This document shows, piece by piece, positions 7,920 to 22,811 of a DNA stretch of 64,000 nt; the first letter of the stretch is position 1; the number at the start of each line of letters is the position of its first letter. Source of the DNA: an uncultured Gemmatimonadaceae bacterium (lineage in GTDB: Bacteria; Gemmatimonadota; Gemmatimonadetes; Gemmatimonadales; Gemmatimonadaceae); contig CAVVTZ010000006.1 in NCBI GenBank assembly GCA_963751275.1, positions 1-64,000 of the forward strand, written 5' to 3'. A program made the position numbers and the translations under genes. A model generated the notes under the pieces. It worked only from the letters and a program-made list of their open reading frames with translations. It was not told the origin of the DNA and ran no database searches.

Positions 7920-8391
7920 TCGGCTCCCTGCGCCGAAGGTCGCGGGCCCGGCGCCCGGCTCCGCCGCCGACGCTCAAACCGCTTCGAGCCTCGCGCACAC
8001 TACGCGCGAGTCTCTCGCTTTTCGCTGAGGCGGCGTCGCCGGGACCGGACCCGCTCCCGTTCGTCCCCGGTGGACTGCGACTGCGCGCTGATGCGCGCCC
8101 GAGGCCGTTCAGTGGGCGCGAACGGATCCGGGCGCGCGCCTCCCGTGCGGATCGCGTGCGGGAGGCTGCCTCGGCGGCCGCGTTTCCGTCTCGCCCGGTC
8201 GGGCTGAACGACCGATGATCATCGCGCATGTTGTGGCCCCATGGAGCCGGCCGGCGGGCGGCGGGTCCCGCGGCGGCGGCCTCAGCGAAAAGCGAGAGAC
8301 TCGCGGCGCCGTTCAGCCGCGAGGCTCGAAGCGGTTTGAGCGTCGGCCGCCAGAGCGGGGCCCGCCGCCCGCCGGACCCGCGCAAGGAGCT
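7920..8391. repeat. Large imperfect inverted-repeat element of about 470 bp
   Basis: 7966-8031 (GACGCTCAAACCGCTTCGAGCCTCGCG..CGCGAGTCTCTCGCTTTTCGCTGAGG) is the reverse complement of 8279-8347. Confidence 0.85.
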
Positions 8392-13457: not shown

Positions 13458-13865
13458 CTACTGCTTCGAGAAGCTATCCCGCACGTCCGCTCGCATCAAA
13501 TACCAGATCATCAAGCCGCCGATCGGGAGGCCGATCAATGTGCGGAGATCGTGGCGGACGATCGCGTTCATCGAATCGCCGGCGAGGTTCGCGACCAGGA
13601 TCGCGATCGCCAATCGCCTGCCCCACTCGGCGCCGCGCCACAGGCCGGCGGCGGCGAGCGCACAGGCGCAGGACACGGACGCCATCACGAGCGGGCCGAA
13701 TGCGCCCATCGCCGCGAGATCATCGCGCGTGGAGGGCTTGAGGCTCCACATCGCGTTCCACCGCTCTCCGGGCGTGAGCAGCGCGATGCACGTGACGCCC
13801 GCGATCAGTGCGCCGGCGGCGAAGAAGAGCGTCAGCGCGACAATGCCAGCGCGGCGCGAGCTCAG
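13458..13865 (-). CDS. Hypothetical membrane protein (about 4 TM)
   Basis: Hydrophobic C-terminal part of ORF 13458..14714, downstream of the probable acyltransferase stop. Start uncertain. Confidence 0.6.
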   Translation of the reverse strand: MSSRRAGIVALTLFFAAGALIAGVTCIALLTPGERWNAMWSLKPSTRDDLAAMGAFGPLVMASVSCACALAAAGLWRGAEWGRRLAIAILVANLAGDSMNAIVRHDLRTLIGLPIGGLMIWYLMRADVRDSFSKQ

Positions 13866-15166
13866 CGCACGTCTCCCAATGCAGCCGCCACTTCGCCGGC
13901 GAGCTGCCGGCGGCGCGCGGTCAGCCGGCCAATGCGTATCCCCATGGAACGCGCGCAGCCAGAGGGCGCGCGCCCACTCCATGACGCCGGAAGCGAGCTC
14001 GCCGTAGCGCAGCGCCACGTAGCCCGTCACCGCCGCCAGCGCGAAGAAGGGCACGATCCACACGGCGCCGCATAGCACGCCCACCACGATCGATTCCACG
14101 ATCCACGCGCCCCCCACGAACAGGATTCCCGAGAGCAGCTTCACGGTGCCCAGCACGTCATCGCTCTCCGCGTTCCGCTCGGCGACCAGCCCGGCGAGGC
14201 GATAGGGGACCCAGCCCAGCACTGCTCCAATGTCGGCGAAGGGCAGCAGCACGATCAGTCGCACGAGCGCCCACAGGAACGTCGTGAGACGCACCGGCTC
14301 CAGCTCGAGCGACCACGGGTCGCGCACGCCCATGCGGCGCAGCATGCGCGCGTAGTCGCGCGCGCGTCTCGCGATCCGGTCCACGCGCGCCGGGTCGCTC
14401 GCGCTCATCCGCTGGTACGCGTCGGCCAGACGGCGCGCCCGGCGATTGCGCGCGACCGGATCCAGCGCATCGCCGTCGGAGGCCGTCCACACGGCCACGA
14501 GCGCGACGCCGTCGAGCAGCTCGCGCGATTCGGCCTGCAGCACCACCTCGTCGAGCTTCCTGCGGATCACCTGCGTGAGATCGTGCACGGCCGCGCGCTC
14601 GTCGCGCGCGTAGTCCGCGAGGAGCGGCGCCACCGCGATCGGCTCGCCGGCCACGAGCAGCACGGACGAGCGGAAGGTCACCTTGTCCTCGAAATGAAGC
14701 CCCACGGGCACCACGGTGAGGCCGAATGCGACTCCGCTTCCGCCGAGAGCGCGATGCGCGCCGCGCCGGTCTTGAGCGCACGCAGCGCGGGATCCGAATG
14801 CGACGCGCCCTCGGGAAAGAGCGCGATCGCGCCGCCGCGCGCGAGCTCGGCGCGGCAGAGGGCGAAGCTCTCCTCGTTGCGCGACACATCGCCCGCCCGG
14901 TCACCCGACTCGTGCGCGCGATAAACAGGAATGGTGCCGAAGGCGCGCATGGCGGCGCGGCCGAGCGGATTGTCGAAGAGGGTGCTCTTGGCGAGGAAGC
15001 GCACGGGGCGCCCCGTAGCCACGCGCACCACGATGGGATCGAGCAGGCCGTTGGGATGATTGAGCGCGAGGACGACGGGCCCCGCGGCGGGAAAGCGATC
15101 GGCGTGCTCGACGACGCGCACGGGATAGTAGAGGCGGACGAGGGCCTCGAAGAGGGCGGAGATCAC
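13862..15166 (-). CDS. Lysophospholipid/glycerol-phosphate acyltransferase (frameshifts at about 14715 and 13930)
   Basis: NHPNGLLD (HX4D), FLAKSTLF, FPEG motifs; C-terminal TM region. Confidence 0.85.
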
Positions 15167-15289: not shown

Positions 15290-15425
15290 AGTTCGCCGTT
15301 CTATCCCGCCGCCGCCAGGCGAGCCAGGTGATCACGCTCACCACAAGGAACGCCGGCACCGCGAGGATCCACATCCCGCTCATCATGCCGTCCAGGAACT
15401 CGGCCATCGGGCCGCCCATGATCAT
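15288..15425 (-). CDS. Small single-TM protein (45 aa) at the end of the cox operon
   Basis: ATGA overlap with the subunit IV stop; MIMGGPMAEFLDGMMSGMWILAVPAFLVVSVITWLAWRRRDRTAN. Confidence 0.55.
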   Translation of the reverse strand: MIMGGPMAEFLDGMMSGMWILAVPAFLVVSVITWLAWRRRDRTAN

Positions 15426-15745
15426 GGCGCGGGCGTGGCGGCGCGCAGGTGCAGGAGGCGGAAGGCGTCGGGCCAGATCTGGTTCATCATCAGCAGCGCG
15501 AAGATCAGATAGGGGATGAGCGCCAGGAAGAGCGCGCGGCGCTCCCACTTCATGTGCATGAAGTACATGAGCCCCAGCCCCGCCTCGATGAGCGCCAGCA
15601 CCAGCAGCGCCAGGAAGAGCGTGAGGGTGGGCAGGCCGCGGTAGGTGAGCACCACCTCCACCGCGACGATGAGCAGCAGCCCCAACCAGACGATCACGTA
15701 GAACTTCATCCCCGGCTCGGGGCGGGACTGCGTGTTGGCGGTCAT
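15422..15745 (-). CDS. ctaF: Cytochrome c oxidase subunit IV family
   Basis: Three TM helices, YFMHMKWE motif. Confidence 0.85.
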   Translation of the reverse strand: MTANTQSRPEPGMKFYVIVWLGLLLIVAVEVVLTYRGLPTLTLFLALLVLALIEAGLGLMYFMHMKWERRALFLALIPYLIFALLMMNQIWPDAFRLLHLRAATPAP

Positions 15746-15755
15746 GGCGCGGCCT

Positions 15756-16385
15756 CTACTTGGCGTTCATCAGGTAGACGAGCGGGAAGACGAACATCCA
15801 CACCAGATCGACGAAATGCCAATACAGGCTCGTGGTCTCGATGTGTCCCGGCTTGAGGCGGCCGCGCCGGAACATGAGCGCGACCACCGTGAGCGCGACG
15901 ACGCCCGAGATCACGTGCAGGAGATGCAGCCCCGTGATCCCGAAGAAGGTGGCGCCGAAGAGCACCGATCCGCCCTCGGGATTCTTCGATGGGCTCCACC
16001 CTTCGCCGAACATGCTGAACCACTCGCGGATATGGAGCGTCGCGAAGACCACGCCGAGCAGCACCGTGGCGCCCATCCATTTCACCGTGGCCGGGCGGTC
16101 CTCCCGCTTCGCCGCCGCCACCGCCGCGATCATCGTGAGGCTGCTCGTGAGCAGCACGAAGGTCATCACGAGGCCGTTCACGATCGAGGGGAAGAAGGCG
16201 AAGGGACGCGTCCAGTCGGGGCTGCCCACGCGCAGATAGCCGTACGCGAAGAGGAGCGCGCCGAAGGTGGCCGCATCCGCGATGATGAACAGCCACATCA
16301 CGAACTTCTTGGACTCGATCGCGAACGGAGATGGTTCCATCGCCGCCCCATGTCCCCCGCTCGTCGTCACAGCAGAATCGGCCAC
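15756..16385 (-). CDS. ctaE: Cytochrome c oxidase subunit III
   Basis: MWLFIIAD, FFGITGLHLLHV, LYWHFVDLVWMFVFPLVY. Confidence 0.92.
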   Translation of the reverse strand: MADSAVTTSGGHGAAMEPSPFAIESKKFVMWLFIIADAATFGALLFAYGYLRVGSPDWTRPFAFFPSIVNGLVMTFVLLTSSLTMIAAVAAAKREDRPATVKWMGATVLLGVVFATLHIREWFSMFGEGWSPSKNPEGGSVLFGATFFGITGLHLLHVISGVVALTVVALMFRRGRLKPGHIETTSLYWHFVDLVWMFVFPLVYLMNAK

Positions 16386-16404: not shown

Positions 16405-16968
16405 TCACACCCGCATCCAGAGGATCAAGAGCAGATAGAGCCAGAGCGCCAGCATGAAGTGCCAATAGAGCGCCGCGGCGGCGAGCGCATTGAGCGGATC
16501 CGCCCCGCCGGCGCGCGACACGCGCACCGACACGTACGAGAGCGCGATGAGCCCGCCGATCACGTGCAGCGCGTGCAGCACGGTGAACAGGTAGAAGAAC
16601 GCGCTGCTGGGCGCCGTGGCGAGATACAGACCCTGCGCCACGAGCGCGCGCCACGCCACGAACTGGCCGGCGAGGAAGAGCAGCCCCAGTCCGAGCGTCG
16701 CGTACAGCAGGCTGCGTCCCGCCGGCGACCCGAGATCGCCCGCGAGCCGCCGCCGGCTCAGTTCCAGCGTGCCGCTGCTCACCAGGAGCACGAGCGTGTT
16801 GACGAGCAGGATCGATGGCAGCTGGAAGCGCACCCAGTCGGTGGCGCCGCCCTGGCGGATGACCAGCGCGCTCGTGAGCGCGGCGAAGAACATCGCGATC
16901 GCGAGGATCCCGACCAGCACGCCGGTGCGCGCCGGCGATTCGTAGCGGGCCGCGGTGGGTGCCGTCAC
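16405..16968 (-). CDS. Cytochrome c oxidase subunit III-like (second, more divergent copy)
   Basis: NTLVLLVSS, FFYLFTVLHALHV, YWHFMLALWLYL. Confidence 0.88.
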   Translation of the reverse strand: MTAPTAARYESPARTGVLVGILAIAMFFAALTSALVIRQGGATDWVRFQLPSILLVNTLVLLVSSGTLELSRRRLAGDLGSPAGRSLLYATLGLGLLFLAGQFVAWRALVAQGLYLATAPSSAFFYLFTVLHALHVIGGLIALSYVSVRVSRAGGADPLNALAAAALYWHFMLALWLYLLLILWMRV

Positions 16969-18736
<1,768 letters not shown>

Positions 18737-18751
18737 GCGATCCTCGGCGGC

Positions 18752-19552
18752 TCATTGATTGGCCTGCGACTTCAGCCATTCCTCGTATTTGTCCTGGGTC
18801 ATCACTTCGATGTACGCGCGCATGTTGTAGTGCCCGAGCCCGCAGAGCTGCGTGCACACGATCTCGTGCTTGCCGATCTGCGTCGCGGTGAAATGCAGCG
18901 GGATGACGATGCCGGGCACGAAGTCCTGCTGGATGCGCAGTTCGGGCACGAAGAAGGAGTGCCCCACATCCTTGGAGTGCATGCTGAGCGAGATCTCCCG
19001 GTTCACCGGCACCACGAGCGATGCGGAGACGATGTCGTCGCGCGCCGCGGTGTCATTGGCCGGATCGAGGCCGAAGTAGTTGTTGTCGGCCTCGGAGATC
19101 TTGTCGGGGTGGAGGACGCCGAATTTCCCGTCGGGCCCCGGATAGCGGAAATAGAACGCGAACTGCCCGGCCTGCGCGTCGATCTGCAGCGCGCCGGCGC
19201 CGGCCGGCGCGATGTAGATGGACGCCCATACCTTGGAGCCGACGAGCGTGAGCACCAGCACCTCGATGCCCACGAGCACGACGGCGAAGATCACCATCGG
19301 CCGCGCGCCGCCGGGGAAGATCTTGACCTTCCGTCCATCGCCCCGGTCGGCGAATCGCCAGACGAAGGTCGCCAGCGCGAACTGCGACACCACGAACAGC
19401 ACGCCCGACGCGATCATCGTCTCCATCAACTGGTGGTCGATCCCGGCGCCGAGCACCGAAATGTCGGGCGGGAGCCACCAAATGCGGCTCACGAAGATCG
19501 CGGCCGACACGATCGTGATGATCGTGAGGGCGATCGAGAAGAACTTTCCCAC
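18752..19552 (-). CDS. ctaC: Cytochrome c oxidase subunit II (CuA, no fused cytochrome c)
   Basis: SKDVGHSFFVP..DFVPG..CTQLCGLGHYNM CuA motif. Confidence 0.93.
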   Translation of the reverse strand: MGKFFSIALTIITIVSAAIFVSRIWWLPPDISVLGAGIDHQLMETMIASGVLFVVSQFALATFVWRFADRGDGRKVKIFPGGARPMVIFAVVLVGIEVLVLTLVGSKVWASIYIAPAGAGALQIDAQAGQFAFYFRYPGPDGKFGVLHPDKISEADNNYFGLDPANDTAARDDIVSASLVVPVNREISLSMHSKDVGHSFFVPELRIQQDFVPGIVIPLHFTATQIGKHEIVCTQLCGLGHYNMRAYIEVMTQDKYEEWLKSQANQ

Positions 19553-19569: not shown

Positions 19570-20334
19570 CTAGTACGGCGTGGCGGTGAAGACGAGATTG
19601 ACCTTCTGCGTTTCGTTACCCGTAATGGTGACGTCTGCAGTCTTGGTGCCGAACTTCTCCTGCCACGCGGTGACGGTGTACTTGCCCGGCGGGAGTCCCG
19701 CGAGGCTGAAGGCGCCGTCGGGTCCCGTGACCGCCGAGTGCGAGGTGTTCAGCACCGCGAAGTAGCCGTGCATCCACGGATGGATGTTGCACTTCACGGG
19801 AATGAACTCCGCCTTCTCGTAGGTGACGTCGATCGGCGGCGAGCCCGGCGGCTGCGACTTGTTCCACTCCGGATTCAGCTTGGGCATCGGGTGGATGTTG
19901 TGGGACGTCTGGTCATCGTTCGCGATCTCGAGCTTCTGCCCCGCCTCCATGACCGCGACATGCGGCAGGTACTGACAGCCCTTCTGCGTGTACTTCGCCG
20001 GCGTGGCGGGCGGCGCGGTGTGCGTGTCGCCGGCGGAGATGTAGACCACCACATCGCCCAGCGTATTGCCGGGCCCGGTGACGACGAACTCGGTCATCGC
20101 GGGTGGATTATGCTCCTTGGCGCAGCTCGGCTCCTTCGCCATGTCGATGGGCTTCATCTTCGGCGGGGTACCGGTGTACGTGATGATGCCGCTAATGGTG
20201 CCGCCGGCGGCGGGTGCGGGCGCCGCGCCGCCGAGGAGCAAGACCAGCGCGGTCGCCGCGCCGGCGAGCGCGACGGCCGTGGCCGCCGCGCCCGCCGGGA
20301 ACGCCGGCTTCAGTCGTGAGGGTCGATCCATCAT
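19570..20334 (-). CDS. Periplasmic cupredoxin-like protein with a carboxypeptidase-regulatory-like Ig domain
   Basis: Signal peptide; HNIH...CNIHPWM (type-1 Cu-like His/Cys/His/Met set); GAFSLAGLPPGKYTVTAW; ATGA overlap with the upstream gene. Confidence 0.75.
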   Translation of the reverse strand: MMDRPSRLKPAFPAGAAATAVALAGAATALVLLLGGAAPAPAAGGTISGIITYTGTPPKMKPIDMAKEPSCAKEHNPPAMTEFVVTGPGNTLGDVVVYISAGDTHTAPPATPAKYTQKGCQYLPHVAVMEAGQKLEIANDDQTSHNIHPMPKLNPEWNKSQPPGSPPIDVTYEKAEFIPVKCNIHPWMHGYFAVLNTSHSAVTGPDGAFSLAGLPPGKYTVTAWQEKFGTKTADVTITGNETQKVNLVFTATPY

Positions 20335-21179
20335 TGTGTGCCTCCATCCGGCCCAATGGGCTTGAGTGTGTTGGGATGTTCGCTGACGTACTGCTTGTAC
20401 AGCGCCGACTCCTGCGTGACCAGCAGGGGCTGCAGGGTGCGCAGGAAGTGCACGAGGTCCCACGCCTCATCCGGCTTGAGATTGTCGGCGAAGGACGGCA
20501 TCGGCGTGCCATCGAGTCCGGTCATGAAGTCGCGGTAGATGTCCGCGTTCGTCGTGCCGCACTTGAAGCGCTCGCCGGTGGAGAAATTGTACGGACGGAT
20601 CGGGTTGTCCTTGCTGTCGGTGAGGGTGGACGCCGACGGGCCGTCGCCGTGGCCCGTGGGGCCATGGCATTTCCAGCATTCGAGCTTCTGGTACAGCGCG
20701 CGCCCTCGGAGCACGCTCTCCGTCGTGATCGGCGTCTCCGGCGGGATCTCAATGGGCTTCGCCGGCTGCGCGCTCGCCCACTTGTTGGAGAACGTCTTGA
20801 TGTACGCCACCAGGTTCACGCGCGTCTGCTCCGTGAGCGGGAGCCAGGACGGCATGTTGGTGAAGACGAAGCCGCGCGTGACGGAGTTGTACAGATCCTG
20901 GTCCGTCGGCAGCGAGCCCGACAGTGTGGAGCGGCACTTGAACACGGCCTCCGTGAAGTCGCGGGGCTTGGGGTCGATGTACGGCGCGTTCTCACCGTTG
21001 CCATCGCCATCCACGCCGTGACATCCGATGCAGAAACGCTGATACGACTTGTGTCCATCTTCCACGCTGCCGGTGCGCCCGTCGACGACGACCGGCTGCT
21101 GCGCGCGCAGCGAGGCGGCGCCCCAGAGGAGCATGCTCGTTCCGGCGGCGACCGCGATCCTGCTCGTGTAGGATTTCAT
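20331..21179 (-). CDS. Periplasmic diheme c-type cytochrome
   Basis: Signal peptide; CIGCH and CWKCH, each followed by PRDF/PYNF and MPSW/MPSF (His/Met ligation); AGGAGG RBS. Confidence 0.92.
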   Translation of the reverse strand: MKSYTSRIAVAAGTSMLLWGAASLRAQQPVVVDGRTGSVEDGHKSYQRFCIGCHGVDGDGNGENAPYIDPKPRDFTEAVFKCRSTLSGSLPTDQDLYNSVTRGFVFTNMPSWLPLTEQTRVNLVAYIKTFSNKWASAQPAKPIEIPPETPITTESVLRGRALYQKLECWKCHGPTGHGDGPSASTLTDSKDNPIRPYNFSTGERFKCGTTNADIYRDFMTGLDGTPMPSFADNLKPDEAWDLVHFLRTLQPLLVTQESALYKQYVSEHPNTLKPIGPDGGTQ

Positions 21180-21189
21180 CGGTGGCCTC

Positions 21190-22723
21190 CTAGAAAGCGA
21201 AGTCGAGCGCGAGCAGCACGCTGCTGCTATTCACAATGGCGGTCGGGTTGAGCGGCGGCGCACCCACGCCATCGCCACTCAACGGGACGCCGCCCACGGT
21301 CCTGCTCAGCGAATACTCAACATGGAAGGCCAGTCCGTCCCGGCTGAACATGAAGGGATACGACCGGAGTCCGATGACGTACTGATCCGTGTTGCCGTAG
21401 TTGCTCGCATTGTCCGGATCGGACTGCTGCGTCATGTGCACCTGTTCATAGCGGCCGATGATGATGAACTGCGAGTTCGGGATATAGTGCACTTCGAGCA
21501 GCGCACCGTTCCATTCGGCGTTCTTCGCGCCGGACGGCACCGCATCGGTGCCCGCCAGCCCGAGTCCGAGATACACGTTGTCGGACGCGTGCATGAATTG
21601 CGGAAGGAATTCGAAGTTCCCGAACCAGAGCTGCGCCGTGGCGCCGATCCGGTAGAAGCTCTTGTTCATCGAGCCGGTGCCGCCGATCACTTCGCCACCG
21701 GACGTCTGGCTGAGCGTCGGATACTGGCCGAGGACGCCGAAGAGGCCGACGCGCTGCGGTCCGAGCGATTTCGACTGCCAGCCCTTGCTCAGCGTGAAGA
21801 CGCCGTCGAGCCCTTGCCCGGTGCCGGGGGGAAGGCCGGGCGTGCCGTCGGCGTCGCTGACGAACGCGACGGTGTAGCGCATCCAGCTGCTCGCGTCGTG
21901 CCCCATCAACTCGATGCCGAGCTGGTTGTCGCCCATGCCGAAGGGATTGGAGTCCCCAATGGGCACGAAGTGGTACTGCGAGTAGAAGGAGCCGTTGTTC
22001 GAGAGTGTCTCGATGCGCTTCTCCGACAGGAGATTGTCGAGCTCGAACTTGCCCATCTTGATGTTGACCCAGCTGCTGCCGACGTTGTCGAAACGCACGA
22101 ACGCCGTCTCGATGCCCATCGTGCCGTCGGGATCGAGCGTCGGCACGAGGCCGAAGGTGATGTTCTTGTAGAGGGTGCCGAGCATCAGGAAGTCGATGCC
22201 CGAGAGATCGAAGCCGGCCTGCGTGATCGTCTTGGAGACGCAGCAGGTGAGTCGGATCACCCGGCGTCGCGTCCACCGGCTGGTTGGTGGTGGTCTCGAT
22301 GTGGTACTGCGGCGTGGTGCGCAGCGAGATCGGCCAGTACGACGGATTCTGCCAGATCGGAGAATCCTTCTCGTTGCCGAGCTGGTAGCCGCGGTCCTTG
22401 AAGGCCTGGCCGAACGGATTGAGCTCGGGCCACGTGGTGTGGCAGGCGGAACAGGGGAGATCGTACTTCCGCGCGAAGGCCGGGATCCGCTTCTTCGCGA
22501 AGTTGGCGAAGGTCTCGCGGCCGGTGGTGGTGGCGGGTGCCGCGCTATTGAGCGAGGCGGTGTAGGCCTTATACGCCGCGTTCAGATCGGGCGACGGCGC
22601 CGGGGCGTCGGTCATCGCGGATGAACTTAGAAAGATCGCCGCGGGGAACAGCAGTGGCCCGAAGATCGCGACAGTCCATCGCCGCCCGCGTACACCCGGC
22701 CGTACGGGTAGCAGATTCGCCAT
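21190..22723 (-). CDS. cyc2: Cyc2-like monoheme cytochrome-porin fusion (frameshift at about 22250)
   Basis: PAFARKYDLPCSACHTTWPELNPFGQAFKDRGY matches the Cyc2 PxFAR[QK][TY]-CxxCH-PxL pattern. The downstream part has alternating beta-strand character and ends LDFAF (terminal Phe). GAGGAGG RBS; about 510 aa when joined. Confidence 0.8.
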
Positions 22724-22811
22724 ATGTCCTCCTCTAGGAGATCACCGCGTATCGTGCGCATCGCCGCGAGACGCGATCGTTCAACGGTCTCGCAACAATT
22801 CGGTCGCGCTA

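Follow-up and report, generated by a model that had tools for sequence, protein, structure and literature searches.

The window analysed here, a stretch of 64,000 nucleotides from an uncultured Gemmatimonadaceae bacterium (contig CAVVTZ010000006.1 of assembly GCA_963751275.1), carries on its minus strand a cyc2 gene followed by a run of oxidase genes (Table 1). The cyc2 sequence extends from 22723 to 21190 as one gene of about 510 amino acids that is split by a single +1 shift at 22246-22256, leaving the two pieces of the open reading frame (ORF) listing, a 425-aa ORF (21446..22723, minus strand) and a 356-aa ORF (21190..22260, minus strand). The 5′ frame reads ...FAKKR-IPAFARKYDLPCSACHTTWPELNPFGQAFKDRGY..., and the 3′ frame ends in DFAF and a stop codon at 21190; PAFARKY starts at residue 81 and the CxxCH at residue 91, with three residues between the motif and CSACH. 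The original prediction had taken these two ORFs for a single frameshift-split gene encoding PAFARKY, CSACH, PEL, a barrel half and a terminal Phe; the coordinates agree, every one of these elements is present in the joined gene, and both halves align to one continuous ORF in relatives, so that the joined gene is not a product of chance. It had also held that automatic annotation would miss the gene, which is borne out insofar as neither piece matches a Pfam or NCBIfam family, but the frameshift is not the only cause, since an intact homologue, searched against Pfam alone, has no match either.

Table 1. Features of cyc2 and of the oxidase genes that follow it, in positions of the window.
Feature	Position	Strand	Basis
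Shine-Dalgarno-like GAGGAGG	22728..22734	-	sequence; 4 nt ahead of the ATG at 22723
Predicted Sec signal peptide, residues 1-36	22616..22723	-	basic start, hydrophobic core, SSA/M site; by eye and hydropathy
44-residue N-terminal extension, Tyr motif AAYKAY (Y51-Y54 at 22573-22562)	22484..22615	-	sequence, homologues
PAFARKY, Cyc2 signature motif, R-I ahead instead of consensus A-x	22463..22483	-	sequence; definition in accessible text of PMC8406198
Single haem-c site CSACH (22453-22439), then TTW-PEL	22421..22453	-	sequence
+1 frame break, most likely an assembly error	22246..22256	-	frameshift-aware alignment and bridging contig
Remaining porin barrel (16 strands in homologue model), end DFAF	21190..22245	-	sequence, homologue model
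Dihaem cytochrome c (CIGCH, CWKCH), 10 nt past the cyc2 stop, predicted direct partner	20331..21179	-	domain search, motifs
Exported protein, type-1-copper-like ligand set (HNIH...CNIHPWM), CarboxypepD_reg; likely blue-copper carrier	19570..20334	-	domain search, motifs
coxB, CuA subunit II (CTQLCGLGHYNM), no fused cytochrome c	18752..19552	-	Pfam/NCBIfam, motif
coxA, A1-type (GHPEVY) haem-copper oxidase subunit I, seven +1 shifts	16965..18736	-	domain search, alignment
cox3, first copy	16405..16968	-	Pfam/NCBIfam
cox3, second copy	15756..16385	-	Pfam/NCBIfam
cox4	15422..15745	-	Pfam/NCBIfam

Cyc2 proteins are defined, in the accessible text of PMC8406198, by a PXFAR[Q/K][T/Y] motif, a CxxCH, a PxL, a length of at least 365 amino acids and a porin domain. 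In the window protein PAFARKY lies just upstream of the haem site, and the single CxxCH is followed by a PxL (CSACH-TTW-PEL); one CxxCH is likewise present in 119 of 120 homologues, the remaining one being a fragment. The length of 510 amino acids, against the 365 called for in one frame, is reached once the extra base is discounted; as assembled the frame is split, and homologues are single ORFs. The fuller consensus AXPXFAR begins with an Ala, a position outside the PMC8406198 screening rule; the window protein has Arg there (R-I-P), and Ala is found in 81/118 close and 65/80 distant homologues. Relatives at 43-59% identity over the barrel half are almost all from metagenome-assembled genomes (MAGs) named Gemmatimonadota. 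Of 8,000 candidates scored, 3,598 proteins match the intact homologue L002.

The fold and the complex described below were computed on L002, which is 57-59% identical to the window protein over the barrel half, and not on the window's own protein. An AlphaFold2 model of mature L002 built from 118 aligned rows (mean pLDDT 89.5) shows a small helical haem domain and a C-terminal barrel of 16 strands resembling OprO and OprP; an earlier model from 46 close rows had left residues 1-116 below pLDDT 50, whereas in the second the haem domain is resolved and residues 1-42, belonging to the extension, are not. Fold search with the first model returned porins including OprO (4rjw) and OprP (2o4v) at E ~1e-10, the templates that PMC8406198 names for Cyc2 in its accessible text. 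A sequence search of the PDB gave no significant solved relative (best E 0.18), in line with a 2026 review that, in the portion available, describes the Cyc2 structure as unsolved (PMC13741234), and the Atlas held unnamed clusters only, the nearest named family being Porin_O_P with 20% of members. The motifs, the modelled barrel and the fold matches together support the assignment first made from the letters alone, namely that the cyc2 product is an outer-membrane porin fused to a one-haem cytochrome of the Cyc2 family, and the model of the intact homologue agrees with the expectation that the C-terminal part forms a barrel.

The oxidase operon, which the original prediction did not mention, is the main functional clue to cyc2, and its genes are presumably co-transcribed; no promoter-like site was found around it, and terminator-like sites occur at chance level. 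It contains cyc2, a c-type cytochrome, a cupredoxin, coxB, coxA, cox3 and cox4 in one run, the composition of a rus-like COX cluster, and differs from the rus operon proper in that it has no rusticyanin gene and no type 0 ctaA at its end. This arrangement recurs widely among 24 related loci, seven of which are cut by contig ends. The dihaem cytochrome directly follows cyc2 in 23 of the 24, the remaining one being cut by a contig end, and the type-1 copper and CuA motifs occur in 21/24 and 20/24 loci; the run continues through coxB in all 21 loci long enough and through cox4 in 16 of 24, and L016 alone has no coxA match despite available sequence. Within the window's coxA, the seven shifts lie near 18067, 18027, 17963, 17530, 17376, 17264 and 17164; four of the shifts fall in the 3′ 570 bases and three within ~105 bases near 18067-17963, a pattern that would lead to annotation as several fragments. 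Downstream of cox4 lie a short ORF and then an acyltransferase-like ORF, and the latter gene (13458-15166) also seems to be split across frames. Several related loci have extra copper-protein-like copies, located either upstream of cyc2 or past cox4 (L011 1498-2118, L009 16131-16553, L012 16069-16572, L015 15021-15416).

Across the phylum, 129 of 301 genomes match the Cyc2 profile at E 0.001 or better, a count that includes the unpublished genome G012, which enters that count only, and 28 genomes including this one, all members of this order, match at E below 1e-70. No cyc2 match was found in any of the five same-genus genomes searched (63-89% complete), and the gene is therefore not core to the genus. 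The host genome contains cytochrome c assembly genes, a ctaA on another contig and a second oxidase subunit I elsewhere, and no RuBisCO match was obtained in this assembly, which is 83% complete; the organism is likely a heterotrophic, soil-type member of the Gemmatimonadota. It also carries a second Cyc2-like gene (G000:C7, L085 3625-7053) with PAWARKY and CTGCH, without an extension and frame-broken, which ends a run comprising a Rieske protein, a cytochrome b-like gene and a monohaem cytochrome c, and this second locus may link an outer-membrane conduit to the quinone pool. Two of the related loci, L013 and L016, belong to MAGs labelled Anaerolineales and Limnocylindrales, where an outer-membrane barrel would not be expected; L013 is likely mis-binned, judging from its near-identity in type to the Gemmatimonadota copies.

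Cyc2 proteins have been divided into clusters (PMC7029218, accessible text), of which cluster 3 is the most uncertain in function, and Leptospirillum Cyt572 may not represent it (PMC8406198, accessible text). For placement, Cyt572-type proteins were taken from metagenomes by the published N-terminal motif, and four ARQT-type proteins, whose cluster is assumed, from named plasmids. The wide profile scored three Cyt572 rows at 150-162 bits versus 33-59 bits for the four ARQT rows, and the window protein alone, read through with X, gave 42-59 versus 20-37. In a quick tree of 52 mature sequences stripped of the extension, the window protein falls among 13 extension-bearing rows (SH-aLRT 97), and these join Cyt572 in a group of 44 rows (SH-aLRT 95) that excludes the ARQT rows; the tree has no cluster 1 anchor, contains long branches including Cyt572, and draws on rows picked by similarity to the profile itself. 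By these comparisons the window Cyc2 groups with Cyt572, which favours the cluster 3 membership suggested in the original prediction, with Cyt572 as the anchor and no cluster 1 reference beside it. A Cyc2 from a hot spring Gemmatimonadota MAG has already been assigned to cluster 3 (PMC9671151, accessible text), and no placement of Gemmatimonadota was found in the text of the supplements of PMC8406198 and PMC7029218.

A complex model of the intact L002 Cyc2 with the dihaem cytochrome and three haems reached a score of 0.75, versus 0.00 for the best control, with runs agreeing in at least 91% of contacts and a partner pLDDT of at least 89; the mark used for this score is reached by 116/157 solved complexes and 2/215 mismatched pairs, counts that apply only roughly here. 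Confident contacts connect the haem region of Cyc2 (residues 47-53, 62-67 and 75-79), together with barrel turns, to the first-haem region of the partner (20-26 and 76-92), and the Cyc2 haem domain is thus predicted to dock on the first haem domain of the dihaem cytochrome. Taken with the operon, this leads to a reading that is probably correct, in which cyc2 is an intact Cyc2-family gene broken only by an assembly error and its product passes electrons from outside, likely from Fe(II), to an oxygen-reducing oxidase. The outside donor would reduce the haem of outer-membrane Cyc2, from which electrons would move to the neighbouring dihaem cytochrome and on through the likely blue-copper protein to CuA and oxygen, and the host, likely a heterotroph, would gain extra proton-motive force from this path. 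We infer that electrons flow in this direction.

Fe(II) would be the donor by what is known of the family: it is oxidised by Cyt572 (PMC13741234, accessible text) and by the cluster 3 Cyc2 of Ca. Mariimomonas. Other donors could feed the same conduit and chain instead: Mn(II), humic or quinone compounds in reduced form, another cell, or the surface of a mineral or an electrode. Heterotrophy of the hosts is likely, as the missing RuBisCO match in this genome suggests, Cyc2-like matches extend to 129 of the 301 genomes, and the accessible text of PMC8406198 allows that Cyc2 may have other functions and treats cluster 3 as the least verified; on the other side, every tested Cyc2 protein in the cited papers, including the two cluster 3 proteins just named, oxidised Fe(II), and the gene order resembles that of the Acidithiobacillus rus operon. 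A donor other than Fe(II) is judged unlikely, yet it deserves to be kept in view. It is an open question (PMC8406198, accessible text) whether iron is oxidised by the products of the numerous cluster 3 Cyc2 genes found in soil heterotrophs. The extension-bearing clade is a compact system in which to address it, since the partners are all encoded in one operon and the predicted interface can be targeted by mutation.

The favoured reading presupposes that the frame break does not belong to the organism. Frameshift-aware alignment of the eight operon genes with an intact same-family relative gave one +1 shift in cyc2, near 22246, and seven in coxA, the other six genes having none. When contigs of seven read runs were compared, a single one, from another study and ~90% identical (33 mismatches in 341 nt), bridged the break with more than 31 nt on both sides, spanning 22077-22417 without one base at 22256; a near-identical contig of 151 nt stops at 22249 and does not cross the break, and contigs in two runs are without one base at 17533, the site of one coxA break. 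A word search of read runs found at best 0.11 of words in one run, a share too small to be informative on habitat. A control across the genome used ORFs taken from 13 stretches of two genomes of the same genus and aligned to the present one, a composition filter keeping 28 of 310 ORFs and an identity and coverage cut 21 of those. The frame changed in nine of the 21 genes, 16 times over 9,791 aligned residues (0.54 per kb); at this rate, the probability that a 1.5-kb gene contains one break or more is 57%. Haem site and barrel share one ORF at 13 of 19 genome loci, five others being cut by contig ends (two of which nevertheless stay in frame across the cyc2 junction) and one, L017, being itself broken, and the second Cyc2-like gene of this genome is broken as well. 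Because coxA carries seven more +1 shifts, control genes are shifted at the rate given above and the bridging contig is without the extra base, the break in cyc2 is very probably an insertion error of the long-read type, which lends indirect support to the artefact proposed at the outset.

A real break, with decay of the gene and possibly of the whole operon in this lineage, or with halves made separately or joined by programmed frameshifting, is a distinctly improbable alternative. It draws on the position of the break in a variable surface loop, the five same-genus genomes without a match, the broken L017 and the reliance of the artefact reading on indirect sequence comparison, given the low word share of the best read run. 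Against it stand the +1 direction of all eight operon breaks, the similar rate of shifts in genes outside the operon, the catalytic motifs and 73-80% identity to relatives retained by the coxA pieces, and the lack both of a slippery run at the site and of a signal peptide on the barrel piece. Programmed frameshifting in particular was rejected, as the slippery run is absent and the break is not conserved. The frameshift itself is most likely only a caution about this assembly. In its downstream frame the loop at the break (22236-22250) encodes two adjacent Cys, and the same loop of L018 (~7960-8010) also contains two Cys. A surface disulfide could form there, the exact sequence in the window depending on the position of the extra base.

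The weakest alternative, in which the barrel-haem protein does not feed the oxidase and is a redox-gated or haem-plugged channel or sensor placed before the cox genes by shared oxygen regulation, would suit the matches of the barrel to general and phosphate porins and the case of L016, which keeps cyc2, the cytochrome, the copper protein and coxB yet has no coxA match in the following 5.6 kb, but it is rendered very improbable by a gene order conserved across many genomes and by the predicted interface, which would join two haem-bearing regions.

The N-terminal extension sets this Cyc2 apart from characterised ones. Between the predicted cleavage site (SSA/M) and the P of the motif lie 44 residues, 48% of them Ala, Pro or Thr, close to the roughly 45 Ala/Pro/Thr-rich residues first estimated. 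The distance from hydrophobic core to motif is 50 residues in the window protein and at least 20 in all 109 close homologues with a usable start (median 24; 11 of the 120 were left out), and ranges from 22 to 60 in 27 genome rows including the window (median 50). By comparison, it is 8-14 in three Cyt572 rows and has a median of 9 in 66 distant representatives, six of which reach 20, the distant set having been made by removing 14 rows judged by eye to be clade members. A Y-x-x-Y or Y-x-x-x-Y pair, at variable distance from the PAFARKY-type motif, occurs in the extension segment of 97/109 close and 19/27 genome rows versus 0/66 distant rows, and a signal-peptidase-type site directly precedes the motif in 62/65 distant versus 73/116 close rows, the window protein having KKR there.

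Contigs of other strains match 22260-22530, which includes the 3′ third of the extension, without gaps and then continue into SLNxAAPA-type sequence. These gap-free matches and the clade-wide occurrence indicate that the extension is real and general to this clade of Gemmatimonadota, and on this tree it arose once; by the same sequence comparisons it accompanies erosion of the old cleavage site. Two other views were rejected, that it is an indel artefact, by the gap-free matches in other strains, and that it is unique to this gene, by its presence in 109 of 109 close homologues. The extension had been called unusual, which stands in relation to characterised Cyc2 proteins, which start at or near the motif, but it is not peculiar to this protein, being shared by a whole Gemmatimonadota clade. 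In six distant homologues (P0211, P0217, P0237, P0245, P0251 and P0269) an insert of ~10 residues lies between the AxA site and the motif (e.g. AYA-LP...IP); it looks like a doubled cleavage region and could represent the start of the extension.

After signal cleavage the extension would likely be periplasmic, or it may be trimmed later. The matching segment of the homologue is a predicted helix with pLDDT ~40 and no fixed position, and it is absent from the confident contact residues of the complex model, which gives no evidence either way. Sister proteins with the same first partners lack the extension, and it is therefore probably dispensable for electron transfer. A broader conjecture, tentative and on balance doubtful, is that this Gemmatimonadota branch of cluster 3 gained a module of 20-60 residues with a conserved Tyr helix and lost the ancestral signal-peptidase site, the module serving as a tether or pro-segment through which the haem-porin's maturation or assembly is controlled, as in PioA, while the protein docks haem-to-haem on its dihaem partner; common soil heterotrophs would then be hidden iron oxidisers at neutral pH. 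In published expression constructs, as far as their accessible descriptions go, the native signal peptide was swapped for that of OmpA, and expression of members of this clade will require a choice whether to keep the 20-60 extra residues.

The Cyc2 family, its presence in the phylum and the rus-like operon are already known; homologues in Gemmatimonadota are reported in the accessible text of PMC9769843. What is added here is a clade-wide, Tyr-bearing extension for which no description was found, and a predicted interface between Cyc2 and its cytochrome. The literature search, which covered few subscription papers, returned discussion of one such extension, that of Rhodopseudomonas PioA, in the text accessible. 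The operon resembles the rus-like COX clusters that the available part of a preprint (10.1101/2020.03.01.968255) describes in Gemmatimonadetes as variants of the Acidithiobacillus iron-oxidation cluster, in which different c-type cytochromes replace Cyc1, COX3 is duplicated and ctaA lies elsewhere in the genome; Fig. 1d and Table S1 of the preprint may already depict the arrangement seen here. A term search of the accessible journal version (PMC8239418) did not find this passage. Unlike the present analysis, the available part of the preprint does not extend to the Cyc2 protein itself, that is, its cluster placement, extension and partner interface.

According to the accessible text of PMC6831781, the electron-uptake cytochrome PioA likewise carries, ahead of its haem region, an N-terminal extension that is variable and specific to its clade, and this extension is removed by proteolysis after secretion; PioA is, however, an unrelated decahaem protein with an extension of ~200 aa, so that the comparison is one of analogy only. 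Closer is Leptospirillum Cyt572, the best-scoring named reference, which shares the ARKY-type motif, the one CxxCH, W-P-x-L, FKDRG and a DFA-aromatic end. According to the accessible text of PMC13741234, mature Cyt572 begins right at the motif (AANA/YPGF, by Edman sequencing); it is also longer, its host is an acidophilic autotroph, and electrons from it reportedly pass to Cyt579 and a cbb3 oxidase. Compared by description with the cluster 2 rus operon of Acidithiobacillus ferrooxidans, the window operon differs in having no rusticyanin or ctaA gene, a doubled cox3, a host that is likely heterotrophic and a Cyc2 with an N-terminal extension, but it repeats the same succession of an outer-membrane haem-porin, a dihaem cytochrome, a cupredoxin, coxB, coxA, cox3 and cox4.
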